In this document: in pieces, positions 1 to 13,611 of the stretch | Numbering within the stretch: the first letter of the stretch is position 1 | How the letters are laid out: each line of letters begins with the position of its first letter | Origin: Candidatus Heimdallarchaeota archaeon | GTDB taxonomy: Archaea > Asgardarchaeota > Heimdallarchaeia > Heimdallarchaeales > Kariarchaeaceae | Assembly: GCA_015523565.1 (NCBI GenBank) | Contig: WAKA01000116.1 | Span: 1-13,701 of the forward strand | Direction: 5' to 3' | Length of the DNA: 13,701 nt | Program-made: the position numbers and the translations under genes | The notes under the pieces: generated by a model | Databases searched by the model: none | The model's input: the letters and a program-made list of their open reading frames with translations, nothing else | Told to the model about the DNA's origin: nothing

Positions 1-2268
1 GAATTCAGTATCGCCATCCTCAAGTATCATTGGAGAGATATTTTCAGTGGAATTTTCATCATAGGATGCCGATAAGCTTCTAGCATCTTCTAGAGCGTTG
101 TCTTCAATTGTTATAGTCATATCCTCTAAAGAGGACAGTATCCATGATTGGAGAGCATGATATTTTTCAATTACCATGCTTGTATTTTTGGGAAAGGCAA
201 GAAGTACAGCCATCCAATATCGAGCAAAGTCATTCAATTGTGGAATCGACTTAAATGAAAGATAGAGATCTTCAACAAATTTGAATAGTTCAAGAGGGGA
301 GGATATTTTTAGGAGATATGACTTAAAGAAGTTCATTAGAACAAAGACATTTTTGGAATTTTTGATGATGAATTCTTCAACAGCAGGTGTCAGACCAGAA
401 ACAGAAGTTAATCTTTTTTGGATTTTATCATAGGCAGTTTGCGTTATTGAATAATAGCCTGCGTCATCTTCCAATAGTAGATTTGTTTCCACCAATTCGT
501 CCAAAATTGTTTCAATTTTCCTTTCATTTAACCCGTACAATGACAAGTCCAAGGTTACAATGGATCGTATATCCAAAGGAGAACCAATGGAAAAATGAGA
601 AAGCAATACCCACTTATTCCATTCGTCAATAAATTCATCCAAGGTTTCATATTCTAAAGCAAGATTCTCTTCAGCTTCTTCGCCCATGTCCAAAATGGAA
701 TCTCCCTCATCTTTTGTTTCAAGCCAATAAGCTACATTATGCTTCAAAGCAGGGAGATCTTGGTCTGAGAAGGAGTCAATGATTTCCAGAAGTTGACCGT
801 GAACATAGCATACCAGTTTGTCTTCAGTTAATTTTGGGAATGCCATCCCGAAGTCAAAACCAAATTTTCTCCAAATTGACAATGGTTCAATAATTAGATC
901 TGAAAGGTTGAAAAGTTCCTTGACAATTTGTTCGGAAAGGAATTGTGTTTTGAAATTATTGAATTGAAGGATATGGAAAAAAGCTTGGAACCTCATTCTT
1001 GATTTCATGCTGGAAATCTTTTGCCAATCGGGGATTGCCAAAGAATAATTGTGATAACCCTTTATTCTAAGGATATGCAAAACAAGACCAACGGCAATTC
1101 GTTGAAGGGGACTGGCAATAGAACTGCAATCAATGACAATCAATCCGCCTTTTGTGAATTCTGGATTGTCAGGTAATGAAAACATGGGAAGTGCCAAGAA
1201 CTTTTCAAATGACATAAGGAAAAGTTCGAGATCCGTTTCTTGGATACTGATTGAGTTCAGTACATGCGGATTTGTCAACAGATCAGAAAAAGACTTGATA
1301 TCAGGATGGTTAACAAGCCCTTCTTGTATCCATTCAATAATTTGGTATGAGGCGGACAACAGATTCGAGGAATACCCAACTAAAAAGCTCCAAGCCTTGA
1401 AGATGAGATGTGCAAAAGATGCATCAGCTTTCATGAGTTTAAGAAGGTTAAAACCAATGGATTTAGCAGATAAAATTCTCATATTCCGTTTTCTAGCAAT
1501 CTCAGGATGACTTTTCATGAATTTTCGGAATACAAAAGGTTTATTGGTAATGATCATTTCGTTATATGGAATTAAGGGGGTAAGAAGAAGGGAGGAGAGT
1601 GTTTCATAAGGATTTCCAACAATTTCCAATCTTTGGGCTTTGGGGACAAAAATAGCCTTTCCTGCCAAGTTTTTTCCGATAAGGATTGAAGAATCCATTT
1701 GCTGAGGAACAAGGGTACGTTTTGGAGCGTCTACAGGAAGATTTTCCATTATTGAAATCAGTTCGAACACATTTATGCGTCGAGATGAGTTGGGAGGGAG
1801 GAATTTTATAAAATCCTTTGGATCAATTGTAATTTTGAGATCTTGAAGGGAAACAAAGCGAACAACCTTTTGAATGACTGCCGTTTTCAGATAGAATGTG
1901 CAATATTTTCTGAATTCTGTAGATAAGATGTCCATAGGATAAGATATGGGGGCAATTATTGAGAAGGCAATAGATAATATCTTGTTTGCGGGATTGTCAG
2001 GATAAACAAGAAAATGTGTTCTGATACGAACATCATGAGACAGATAGCTATTTTTTATGGTTTTGACTTTGAGGAAAAGTTCATTGATTTGTTTTTTGAG
2101 TGATGAATATACGGAGACAGAGCCTGTAGGAGTTATGCTGATTTTTGTGGGACGGGATTCCGTTTGATAGGTAAGCTTTGAAAAGTCAAGAACAAATATT
2201 TTTAGTTTATATTCTTTTTTGGTTTGACCATTTATTATTTCAAATGGATATATGGAATCGTCATTCAT
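1..2268 (-). CDS. Large protein (>=756 aa, 3'-truncated by the window edge); putative inactive HerA/VirB4-like ATPase domain plus winged-helix domain
   Basis: Not in the ORF track. Manual translation from ATG at 2268 (MNDDSIYPFEIINGQTKKEYKLKIF...) is stop-free to position 1 (...ILEDGDTEF). It contains SILIGKNLAGKAIFV..RLEIVGNP (HerA/VirB4-like lead-in but no GKT/S), SIGFNLL, GGLIVIDCSSI..LQRIAVGLVL, an acidic linker and wHTH-like KIETILDELVETNLLLEDDAGYYSITQTAY. The CDS is well supported; the fold call is inference. Confidence 0.85.
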   Translation of the reverse strand, partial: MNDDSIYPFEIINGQTKKEYKLKIFVLDFSKLTYQTESRPTKISITPTGSVSVYSSLKKQINELFLKVKTIKNSYLSHDVRIRTHFLVYPDNPANKILSIAFSIIAPISYPMDILSTEFRKYCTFYLKTAVIQKVVRFVSLQDLKITIDPKDFIKFLPPNSSRRINVFELISIMENLPVDAPKRTLVPQQMDSSILIGKNLAGKAIFVPKAQRLEIVGNPYETLSSLLLTPLIPYNEMIITNKPFVFRKFMKSHPEIARKRNMRILSAKSIGFNLLKLMKADASFAHLIFKAWSFLVGYSSNLLSASYQIIEWIQEGLVNHPDIKSFSDLLTNPHVLNSISIQETDLELFLMSFEKFLALPMFSLPDNPEFTKGGLIVIDCSSIASPLQRIAVGLVLHILRIKGYHNYSLAIPDWQKISSMKSRMRFQAFFHILQFNNFKTQFLSEQIVKELFNLSDLIIEPLSIWRKFGFDFGMAFPKLTEDKLVCYVHGQLLEIIDSFSDQDLPALKHNVAYWLETKDEGDSILDMGEEAEENLALEYETLDEFIDEWNKWVLLSHFSIGSPLDIRSIVTLDLSLYGLNERKIETILDELVETNLLLEDDAGYYSITQTAYDKIQKRLTSVSGLTPAVEEFIIKNSKNVFVLMNFFKSYLLKISSPLELFKFVEDLYLSFKSIPQLNDFARYWMAVLLAFPKNTSMVIEKYHALQSWILSSLEDMTITIEDNALEDARSLSASYDENSTENISPMILEDGDTEF

Positions 2269-2325
2269 ATTTAAGGGAATTTGGTAAGCCTGCATTTATG
2301 ATAAAAAGAAGGATAGGCATATAAA

Positions 2326-13400: not shown

Positions 13401-13611
13401 CTTCCTTTTTATTGTGGTTTTCCAATAATATGGAGGTTTGGATTTGGGAAGATGTAACTCGTTTTTTTGTTGAGCTCATTTTTTCATATGCCTGCAAAGT
13501 CATAATATCCAAATCCAATTGTCTAAAGGGAATTATGAATGGGCAGTAAACATGGATTTGTTTACCATTGTCTTTTACTATGAAATTGTCAATCAATGAT
13601 AAGGTACACAC
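10423..13611 (-). CDS. Large protein, 1062 aa; putative inactive HerA/VirB4-like ATPase domain plus winged helix plus C-terminal domains
   Basis: Long ORF with GTG start and TTTATTAAAAA 26 nt upstream. IVNVHGTKEEREKWL at a Walker-A-like position, then RLLCVG, LKIDFL, LLVIADVD (Walker-B-like), acidic linker ENEYDEFLLEE, wHTH-like CIEAGFVI...EYRLTKDGY, and a P/S-rich linker. Confidence 0.85.
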   Translation of the reverse strand: MCTLSLIDNFIVKDNGKQIHVYCPFIIPFRQLDLDIMTLQAYEKMSSTKKRVTSSQIQTSILLENHNKKEALESASIRQYVSLLLSLPQMGIKLRIIKHKRNFIILGILEETIDLANWIRDSEKIKQKIISQVKGFALPVLSQESVIFSSTGKKKFYFVPKIFLKLNKKYQLSLAVHSNLLNELALTLQTKLSVFEDCNSNDTVIPLDELFPYLFSTSSNKFGLAENGIVNVHGTKEEREKWLKHSLNNYQGRLLCVGSVPKDIGNFSILDLTTLKIDFLKILRAVRVGQDITVFGNFFEQLIQVPNFTRAFRKFIQSLFQQGYPHQQTGVQFSKLISSLAHSDVASVLSDKERRIVYFSFLHLNDYSFLDAPDENDISLFNMFAFLWHKILTADPVQTMLETFLLLKFAVFNDMPYNLLVIADVDLSHFLTHSNLLEVLQAEFPTLRIVLCHRLKYSLSQKFHQLILGKALVNKFFPEIGSYLSNNVALYHNPTNNKVIPVYYDNSPLKYFENEYDEFLLEEGTPLNQEEDIVPLSEKEKELLDRIKTNVFDLTIKSEDFLKMLHDNVAMFSILELFPGIKTSLGFELKKSLESNSEWFSIKGIDIPESLMRSITICIEAGFVILEKSGYSDESNEYRLTKDGYVFYLDTLQKIFENNSLYFPDMAIMNETFQNVENIINNQISVRQLPLNAKIMLWFLKVGYTAYIFGIKNLHIPPLLLGLYRTYNPRYSFTNPTLVEDRIVSDYHLEWQILWNQALETHDYESGTMVAPPSNSSPSPVENLPLELSKTPIAPIKEIIETMIDSQANHVILPTVDLTEEKKISLLGQLTVSDFLTDHQQRLQFPIMKLTLHELGNITNKEIIAQSNEKLSDFIIEIKTLYLNLKTAMLFSKLQDKAKLTLIAAGFKPVKSALPSNVLIPISDENRSKISQTILSSTDVIHAYYFFYKGIIQLWARSEEYRRKITKKHDSLIDEWLDKVKHLPDDTPNQKLLLLLRDLLFKYQEIRGGMFFRMVNSSSAPYLVKVAYVKTDKIWIDIEKQNMANAQNALIQKLNDIAEYRS

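Follow-up and report, generated by a model that had tools for sequence, protein, structure and literature searches.

A conserved Asgard gene neighbourhood joining M50-type membrane proteins, Walker A-less VirB4/HerA-like proteins, adhesins and spare recombination paralogues

The question of how Asgard archaea exchange and recombine their DNA has a bearing on how eukaryotic sex arose. The closest described systems are the Ced/Ted loci, Ups pili and TFB3 regulon of Sulfolobales and Thermoproteales (PMC9905601, PMC11823120, PMC11868833), in which VirB4-like ATPases are joined to recombination genes under TFB3 (PMC9905601, PMC11823120) and the TFB3 programme includes the herA operon (PMC9905601). 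A spare polymerase accompanied by inactive partners and a gene of the RadA family characterises the PolB2-iRadA-PPB2 mutasome (PMC11791011) and ImuA/ImuB/DnaE2, and HerA-NurA-Mre11-Rad50 end resection combines a HerA-family fold with a recombination context. In Asgard archaea, a second RadA clade has been described from Heimdall-, Njord-, Gerd- and, weakly, Lokiarchaea (PMC12722695), as has Fen1-2 (PMC12680538); the available text of both papers treats single genes, and that of the RadA paper contains neither 'neighbor' nor 'synteny'. An earlier note on the DNA analysed here knew of no described system with such a combination of genes, and none was found in the literature searched, in which subscription journals were thinly covered.

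The window, meaning the whole stretch of 13,701 nucleotides that was analysed, is one entire contig of a Heimdallarchaeia genome. It carries nine tightly packed minus-strand ORFs, separated from o1 to o9 by gaps of 39, -8, 8, 30, -77, 24, -1 and 30 nt:

o1, 10423-13611, minus strand, 1062 aa, probable VirB4/HerA-like pseudo-ATPase
o2, 10042-10383, minus strand, 113 aa, small membrane protein
o3, 9528-10049, minus strand, 173 aa, apparent M50-type pseudo-protease
PolB1, 6931-9519, minus strand, 862 aa, second PolB1 of the host
XPD, 5011-6900, minus strand, 629 aa, XPD/Rad3 paralogue
o6, 4365-5087, minus strand, 235-240 aa with a likely start at 5072, possible RadB/KaiC-like remnant
o7, 3594-4340, minus strand, 248 aa, M50/site-2-protease-type membrane protein
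o8, 2326-3594, minus strand, 422 aa, putative Hel308-like helicase remnant
o9, 1-2295, minus strand, 5' 765 of 1059 codons and open at the contig end, predicted dead VirB4/HerA-fold ATPase

The co-oriented, close-packed arrangement described in the earlier note is therefore confirmed, as are its three membrane proteins (hydropathy gave one or more transmembrane segments in o2, four in o3 and six in o7) and its statement that catalytic motifs survive in PolB1 and XPD alone. These two were also the only proteins in the window with Pfam or NCBIfam matches; searches of Pfam, NCBIfam and PDB sequences gave no match for o1, o2, o3 or o6 to o9.

An assembly artefact is ruled out, because an independent 70-kb assembly agrees with the window at 99.76% over its full length. 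The gene unit extends past both window ends, the window being the middle part of a larger locus. Upstream lie a RadA paralogue that keeps its Walker A motif, a 1001-aa protein without assignment and a secreted protein, and downstream one or more giant Ig adhesins. The RadA paralogue and adhesins, together with the common promoter described below, were outside the earlier reader's view. Canonical polB1, xpd, radA, herA and hel308 are encoded elsewhere in the host genome, which is 90% complete. The sequencing runs listed are four DNA runs and no RNA run, from one hydrothermal-vent study.

Two proteins had been read as dead HerA/VirB4 ATPases, an assignment upheld by fold for o9 and by profile for o1. 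In its full length (1059 aa, from the independent assembly), o9 is predicted to comprise a VirB4-like N-terminal domain, a HerA/VirB4 ATPase fold (residues 190-513) and a PadR-like winged helix (549-639). Its best Foldseek match is R388 TrwK/VirB4 (E 7.6e-10), which includes the VirB4 N-terminal domain, and structural comparison gave Z 13-15 to DndH, HerA, VirB4 and TrwB. Walker A is absent from o9 and its 17 homologues in an alignment of 18, and on its predicted model o9 is a dead VirB4/HerA-fold ATPase with a winged helix. The o1 protein also has no Walker A and carries a helical tail. By hhalign it matched o9 with E 3.6e-4 over 216 columns (E 0.02-0.035 with other alignments) and the dead-HerA family of f2/f6 with E 5.7e-5 over 230 columns, and in genome G008 o1-like and o9-like halves are fused; we infer that o1 is a VirB4/HerA-like pseudo-ATPase and a paralogue of o9. 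As both VirB4-like proteins are dead, the locus is without a conventional transport motor. Profile links between the dead-VirB4 families of different classes reached 92% (f14-f17), 75% (f11-f17) and 66% (o1-f2/f6), most others being below 30%, and their common architecture and position suggest a single orthologous family. An intact VirB4/HerA-like ATPase, of a family not found in the Heimdallarchaeia genomes searched, adjoins the M50 gene in two f14 genomes.

The marker gene of the locus is o7, an M50/site-2-protease-type membrane protein that has lost its zinc ligands. Its predicted model (pLDDT 92.7) had SpoIVFB as best Foldseek match with a probability of 0.90 but E 0.06, its best three Atlas matches were M50/DUF3267 (TM 0.35-0.37), and a wide structural search returned generic helical matches only (best Z 6.3). 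The best matches are weak but concordant and, together with family members carrying HExxH, point to the M50 transmembrane fold seen in SpoIVFB, RseP and DUF3267. Orthologues in other Asgard classes have HExxH and a downstream Pro-x-x-x-Asp motif, with HExxH intact in six other families (f14, f17, f18, f19, f22 and f31), whereas the zinc ligands are gone in f1-f4, f6, f9, f11, f21 and f24, and no proteolysis is therefore expected from the host's o7-type protein. HExxH is absent from o3 as well. This protein matched the f2/f6 family K12/F38 at 96% by hhalign, and K12/F38 matched the o7 family at 79%; o3 thus appears to be a second, more reduced M50-type membrane pseudo-protease with four transmembrane segments, in keeping with the two dead membrane zinc proteases proposed earlier. 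Across the phylum, the locus also shows pseudo-enzymes arising stepwise from a membrane protease and from a secretion ATPase. The small o2 protein is conserved in genomes G001, G002, G003 and G007 and is, by position only, the counterpart of a 2-TM protein that precedes the o3 homologue in other families; hhalign gave no significant match between o2 and F37/K11.

A dead Hel308-like helicase had also been proposed, and o8 does correspond to a Hel308 paralogue in its SWIM/winged-helix part, matching an intact 703-aa helicase of H. aukensis at 86% (hhalign, E 5e-6) and the wider Hel308-paralogue family at 81%. That part alone aligns: the N-terminal half has no detectable alignment to Hel308-like helicase, and the paired RecA domains of such a helicase, with their Walker A and DExH, are absent. 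To judge from these alignments, o8 is a shortened Hel308-like helicase remnant that has kept its SWIM zinc finger and winged helix and has no Walker A. Five homologues were found for o6, a soluble alpha/beta protein with a possible RecA fold, which may be a RadB/KaiC-like remnant; it aligned colinearly to RadB-like proteins over 91 columns at 0.5% probability, while neither the RadA and RadB-like profiles nor PDB and Atlas yielded a significant match.

The window PolB1 (E 6.5e-197 to NCBIfam PolB1) is complete in its polymerase and exonuclease motifs and bears a PIP box at the C terminus; the XPD/Rad3 paralogue retains its FeS cysteines along with Walker A, DEAH and motif VI. The check suggested earlier for second, canonical copies found both in the host, a PolB1 on contig C204 (38% identity to that of the window) and an XPD on contig C41 (26% identity). 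In phylogenetic trees, cluster PolB1 copies form one clade (support 100/100) and Heimdall-type cluster XPD copies branch outside the canonical XPD clade. The second PolB1 was found in one family only, and two genomes of the host's own genus have the cluster without it, which rules it out as a core part; it is a lineage-specific add-on with catalytic motifs intact.

The analogy to ImuABC/PolB2 mutasomes offered in the earlier note fails because the window PolB1 keeps proofreading. Like those systems, the locus combines a spare polymerase with inactivated neighbours and with a gene of the RadA family. However, its polymerase groups with PolB1 in the tree and has both motif sets intact, its RadA paralogue keeps Walker A, no PPB2/small helical partner flanks the polymerase, PolB1 is missing from most locus versions, and a further, divergent PolB is encoded separately on host contig C222; a mutasome is ruled out. 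The locus also differs from HerA-NurA end resection, in that o1/o9 are dead with a VirB4-type N-terminal domain, no NurA adjoins, and the canonical herA-mre11-rad50 operon is on contig C117.

Homologue searches covered the Asgard phylum only and found the o7 family in 121 of 400 genomes, with near-universal presence in several families (12/12, 28/31, 7/7 and 5/5). Among the 66 genomes for which flanks were fetched, many of them on short contigs, the neighbours of o7 included RadA/RadB-like proteins (32), dead-VirB4-type proteins (31), adhesins (24), XPD (21), Hef (19) and Hel308/o8 (17), with FEN1 and TFB paralogues also recurrent. H. aukensis and H. endolithica, both with closed genomes, have entire clusters, as do families f5, f6, f11, f14, f17, f21 and f24. 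Gene content and order vary between loci, and in genus g11 of f2 little beyond o7 and one neighbour stays close together. An M50-type protein, a Walker A-less VirB4/HerA plus winged-helix protein and a giant adhesin are linked in many Asgard families, and the same linkage includes spare RadA/RadB, XPD, Hel308, Hef, FEN1 and TFB paralogues. Conserved synteny, which the earlier note had asked after, is far more widespread than that note had hoped for. RadA paralogues group by host family in a tree, where the cluster clade resembles the published second Asgard clade, and extra FEN1 copies lie within f11/f14 clusters; we infer that the cluster RadA is that clade and the cluster FEN1 is Fen1-2.

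Between the two Heimdallarchaeum species, nine locus genes have dN/dS values of 0.02-0.23, the comparison with a same-genus genome being unusable due to saturated silent sites, and between strains o9 shows 13 silent versus 7 replacement changes. The locus genes are under purifying selection, which rules out decaying pseudogenes and supports the earlier suggestion that the inactive proteins are selected as scaffolds.

The locus has a common promoter type, with a pyrimidine-rich tract in the BRE position and a TATA-like box. Two examples lie in the window:

o1 promoter, 13633..13650, minus strand, rank 13 of 3040 genes with a matrix from other genomes; spotted by eye first, hence not independent
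o7 promoter, 4362..4379, minus strand, rank 2 of 3040 genes with a matrix trained without the host genome; not among the by-eye sites

The adhesin ranked 4th and o9 9th, while canonical polB1/xpd/radA/herA ranked 1134-2864. The promoter is clear in the host's order and weak outside it (held-out family enrichment p = 0.053). A true TFB paralogue lies inside f14 clusters (98%), and together with the common promoter is no more than suggestive of damage induction via a TFB paralogue. The 1001-aa upstream gene, the host's candidate regulator, and the f2 neighbour F2 matched TFB weakly (E about 0.04-0.2) and were not accepted as TFB paralogues.

The earlier note drew a comparison with the Ced/Ted systems. 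The locus shares with them a chromosomal position, a pair of VirB4/HerA-family proteins, membrane proteins both small and polytopic, a structure for cell contact, recombination genes in linkage and, in f14 clusters, a TFB paralogue. In contrast to the active ATPases CedB/TedB and CedD, both VirB4-like proteins of the locus have a winged helix and no Walker A; its polytopic proteins are M50-fold, not VirB6/CedA, contact would be via Ig adhesins, and the locus brings its own copies of RadA, XPD, Hel308, Hef, FEN1 and, in the window, PolB1. Neither a VirB6/CedA-like channel nor ComEC nor a pilin could be recognised in the locus. A VirB2-like two-helix pilin (CedA1/TedC in Ced/Ted) would be of a size comparable to o2 and to a 47-aa transmembrane micro-ORF, neither of which has a Pfam or NCBIfam family match. 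In the 90%-complete host, ComEC and the Pfam TrbL and Competence models, which would probably miss CedA, had no match, nor did Pfam TrbL in five genomes. As channel, pilin and active motor were not found, we do not count the locus as a Ced/Ted member.

We tentatively prefer to read the window as the version, specific to its family, of an old programme of contact and recombination that is chromosomal, Asgard-wide and separately regulated, and that may well serve DNA exchange. It would be akin to the TFB3/Ups/Ced programme of Sulfolobales, built from different parts. An alternative TFB would turn it on upon DNA damage or another cue, Ig adhesins would keep cells together, and both pseudo-proteases, with the small membrane proteins, would make up a platform in the membrane that carries the dead VirB4-like proteins as a passive ring guiding DNA. 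In bacterial competence, ComFA supplies the pulling force; here XPD, which is intact and translocates on single-stranded DNA, could do likewise. The RadA paralogue would then pair the DNA taken in with that of the chromosome, and the extra proofreading PolB1 of the host's family would fill gaps on PCNA. Co-regulation is no proof of one machine, and the single membrane-tethered complex of the earlier note stays hypothetical. A more ambitious version, possible though on balance unlikely, is an ancestral, inducible Asgard parasexual programme with adhesin pairing, DNA passage via an M50-fold platform and a helicase-driven passive ring derived from VirB4, and dedicated recombinases of the second RadA clade; if true, it would be a new kind of DNA-exchange machine in the lineage closest to eukaryotes. 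The locus is a concrete candidate, with the second RadA clade, spare XPD/Hel308/Hef/FEN1, adhesins and a VirB4-derived scaffold in one neighbourhood under a recognisable promoter, and is testable in cultured Lokiarchaeia and Heimdallarchaeum enrichments.

As a less likely alternative, the same genes could form a damage- or stress-induced repair regulon without DNA transport, in which the ancestral M50 protease passed an envelope signal on to a TFB paralogue that induces spare recombination enzymes and adhesins for aggregation, while dead proteins act as scaffolds or sensors tethering repair to the membrane. All catalytically intact proteins of the host locus are repair or recombination enzymes, the HExxH-bearing families would fit signalling by intramembrane proteolysis, and neither channel nor motor was found. 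This would still be a newly defined Asgard regulon. However, it leaves the linkage of a VirB4-type N-terminal domain with 2000-aa adhesins across classes unexplained, and the locus promoter is missing from the canonical herA-mre11-rad50 operon and from canonical radA and xpd, unlike the TFB3 programme with its herA operon.

It is improbable that the programme is instead developmental (cell fusion, dormancy or asymmetric division), with chromosomes moved and recombined at a membrane junction in loose analogy to SpoIVFB/SpoIIIE in sporulation. The separate promoter class with a TFB paralogue, the second full set of replication and recombination enzymes (FEN1, PolB1, RadA) and SpoIVFB as best fold match of o7 would suit it, but that match marks the M50 fold only, the loci contain no recognisable fusogen or division protein, and direct evidence is lacking. 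A resident or decaying ICE-like mobile element, with polymerase, helicase and VirB4 remnants as cargo, is already disfavoured and very unlikely: rapid divergence (about 30% identity within a genus), shuffled gene order and extra copies in G001 (contig C90, 45% GC versus 37%), G008 and f21/f24 are set against flanks without a recognisable integrase, relaxase or capsid gene, a locus GC of 36.9% versus a contig mean of 38.8 +/- 1.8%, identical housekeeping neighbours in G000, G001 and G003, mostly single copies, and the purifying selection and family-wise RadA grouping noted above. Least credible of all is an anti-virus or anti-plasmid HerA-partner system (Sir2-HerA, DUF4297-HerA or DndH type) with a small nuclease effector, since despite DndH and defence HerAs among the o9 fold matches and a small nuclease-like gene or DUF790 in several loci, such systems are usually patchy rather than near-universal in several families, and the locus includes recombinases and, in the host, no nuclease.

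The host genome is 3.57 Mb in size and 90% complete, and the window is one entire contig of it. The contig is filled by nine minus-strand genes with intergenic gaps of -77 to 39 nt, numbered o1 to o9 in order of transcription, with PolB1 and XPD in fourth and fifth place. Matches to known families were found for PolB1 and XPD alone, and both have intact catalytic motifs, in agreement with the packed, co-oriented cluster described in the earlier note. The second, canonical polB1 and xpd that it proposed looking for were both found, on contig C204 (38% identity to the window PolB1) and contig C41 (26% identity to the window XPD). 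As canonical RadA, Hel308 and herA-mre11-rad50 are also encoded elsewhere in the genome, the window enzymes are spare copies. The host carries at least five RadA-family genes (contigs C97, C156, C95 and C128), two of which are close duplicates of the canonical type.

The earlier note had read other window genes as two dead HerA/VirB4 ATPases, two dead membrane Zn-proteases and a dead Hel308-like helicase, and these readings were largely upheld. The o9 model, built from 18 homologues (mean pLDDT 76), found its best structural match in full-length VirB4/TrwK (E 7.6e-10); residues 190-513 are predicted to form a HerA/VirB4 ATPase fold (Z 13-15) and residues 549-639 a PadR-like winged helix. Walker A was sought in the o9 homologues and is present in none. 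Profile comparisons relate o1 to o9 (E 3.6e-4) and to a dead-HerA family of f2 and f6 (E 5.7e-5), suggesting that it is the second dead ATPase; f2 is the sister family in the host's order and includes Ca. Heimdallarchaeum aukensis and H. endolithica (G015, G020). A natural 1134-aa fusion of o1-like and o9-like dead ATPases occurs in genome G008 (L076:332-3736, minus strand). The o7 model is confident, with SpoIVFB and M50/DUF3267 as top structural matches, each weak alone; the zinc-binding HExxH is kept in orthologues of f14, f17, f18, f19, f22 and f31 and gone from the family in f1 (the host's own, probably Kariarchaeaceae), f2-f4, f6, f9, f11, f21 and f24. By hhalign, o3 is linked to an f2/f6 family (96%) and that family to o7 (79%). 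A SWIM finger and winged helix are shared by o8 and the otherwise intact Hel308-like helicase of other locus versions (86%), and o2 is a small membrane protein.

The expectation that these long frames are under selection was supported by low dN/dS (0.02-0.23 for nine locus genes between two Heimdallarchaeum species) and by 13 silent versus 7 replacement changes in o9 between strains. All locus frames are open despite ~30% identity within the genus.

The locus extends beyond the window. The right end of the window (13349-13701) overlaps the start of contig C97, which continues the locus on the same strand; the overlap has 96% identity and a 6-nt indel, so the host assembly mixes two strains. 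Contig C97 adds the following genes:

Same strand as the window genes: RadA paralogue, Walker A intact (Pfam Rad51, E 2e-36)
L040:1460-4465, minus strand: 1001-aa protein with cyclin-like helical repeats, conserved in f1, split in G003
L040:1324-1467, minus strand: 47-aa micro-ORF with a single TM segment, placed between the genes of the 1001-aa and the secreted protein
Same strand as the window genes: 342-aa secreted protein

The 1001-aa protein matches transcription factor B (TFB) weakly and is a candidate locus regulator. Hydrophobic ORFs of 33-54 aa occupy the micro-ORF position in G001, G003 and G007, and the micro-ORF is a candidate pilin or small subunit. Past the secreted-protein gene lie housekeeping PCNA and GINS, then RPA-like and eRF1-like genes. 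An independent 70-kb contig connects the window and C97 parts (99.5-99.8% identity), completes o9 (1059 aa) and runs on into a giant adhesin-like gene. A second adhesin (2138 aa), on contig C143, adjoins genes found after o9 in G001 and G002 and is probably joined to the o9 end.

Window gene order is kept in G001, G002 and G003, of the same genus, and in part in G007; it is shuffled in G006 and G008. The o7 profile matches in 121 of 400 Asgard genomes (among them 28/31 in f2, 12/12 in f6, 7/7 in f24, 5/5 in f21, 11/19 in f17 and 23/135 in f14), and the same parts recur in the flanks of several families; the conserved linkage that the earlier note proposed testing for is real. We take f14 to be Loki-type, f11 Thor-type and f21/f24 Njord-type.

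H. aukensis, first part: Hef-like, RadA paralogue, o7, 2121-aa Ig adhesin, 2-TM protein, o3 homologue
H. aukensis, continued: RadB-like, small nuclease-like gene, 1051-aa dead HerA, Hel308, secreted protein, second large surface protein, XPD
f6: XPD, adhesin, secreted protein, 2-TM protein, o3, RadB-like, Hef, dead HerA, nuclease, o7
f11: two RadA paralogues, XPD, membrane dead HerA, Hel308, RadB-likes, FEN1, o7-type gene, adhesin
f14: dead membrane HerA, Hel308, Hef, surface protein, TFB paralogue, o7 with HExxH, RadB-like, RadA
f21/f24: DUF790 nuclease, RadA, o7, HerA remnant, XPD

A RadA/RadB-like gene lies near o7 in 32 of 66 genomes with fetched flanks. Related genomes among these do not count as independent cases, and for the unnamed families the profiles themselves came from these loci; by our own estimate, ~5 such genes in a 3.5-Mb genome would by chance place one in a 20-40 kb flank in a few per cent of cases. 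Also within the locus, in G001, the two Heimdallarchaeum species and a further f1 contig, lies a ~370-aa membrane protein whose family is multi-copy (L032:13993-15096, L079:14754-15908, L125:675-1784). In f21 (L110:7162-9906, L116:6879-9617) a DUF790 (Bax1-like) nuclease and two small genes resembling winged-helix proteins share an operon with the RadA paralogue, and an Arf-like GTPase gene is close by. Two f14 genomes have an intact VirB4/HerA-like ATPase abutting an HExxH-intact M50 gene (L152:7489-9408; L154:7541-9487, minus strand); many f14 genomes have several copies of this ATPase family, and none turned up in the Heimdallarchaeia genomes searched. G001 contig C90 holds a second o1-o9-xpd set (L126:799-7335; GC 45% versus 37% in the main locus), which is either contamination from binning or a copy acquired by transfer.

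A promoter type is shared among locus genes. Upstream of radA, o1 and o9 stands a TATA-like box, and the position before it that an A-rich BRE would normally take holds a pyrimidine tract. A matrix made from 13 sites in other genomes and scored against 3040 host genes ranked o7 2nd, the C143 adhesin 4th, o9 9th and o1 13th, versus 1134-2864 for canonical polB1, xpd, radA and herA; the o7 promoter was not among the sites first seen by eye. Across seven inspected genomes, a set containing two closely related ones, the motif occurs in 10/42 locus genes not viewed beforehand versus 5/88 flanking genes (p = 0.004), and in held-out genomes in 13/282 versus 22/896 (p = 0.053). The top-scoring locus-type promoter of the host belongs to a 208-aa secreted protein (contig C161:1184-1810, plus strand), a possible unlinked regulon member.

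We tentatively read the locus as a DNA-exchange programme, which is quite possible. An alternative TFB would induce its genes, adhesins would pair cells, and o7, o3, o2 and the micro-ORF may form a membrane platform on which o1/o9 would serve as a passive ring, XPD as motor, RadA as driver of recombination and PolB1 as gap filler. Its working would be analogous to the Ups/Ced/TFB3 programme of Sulfolobales; the active ATPase of Ced-type systems is absent from the host's version of the locus. The main gap in this reading is that searches of locus and host identified no channel, pilin or active secretion ATPase, and a repair regulon operating without DNA transport is a less probable but serious rival. 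A developmental programme is improbable. A mobile element is more doubtful still, as no mobility gene was recognised at the locus and its neighbouring genes are conserved; locus GC is 36.9% versus 38.8 +/- 1.8%. A defence system is very unlikely. A PolB2 mutasome was ruled out, the window PolB1 grouping with PolB1s and having intact motifs, as was a HerA-NurA operon, and searches of the accessible literature found no description of the locus.

PolB1 is an add-on to the locus. The only family in which a second PolB1 was found is f1; its five intact cluster copies make up a single fast-evolving clade (100/100) within the order's PolB1s, and o3 is directly followed by xpd, with no PolB1 between, in G003 (93% complete) and G002. 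Two in-frame stops break the second PolB1 of G009 (L038:2471-5128, minus strand), which points either to loss of the gene in the G009 lineage or to an error in the sequence. XPD and the RadA paralogues are old parts of the locus. Heimdall-type cluster XPDs branch outside the canonical XPD clade, though the cluster XPDs of f11, f22 and f31 are placed apart from these. The cluster RadAs of f1, f2, f21/f24 and f14 form one group with moderate support, which resembles the second Asgard RadA clade described in PMC12722695.
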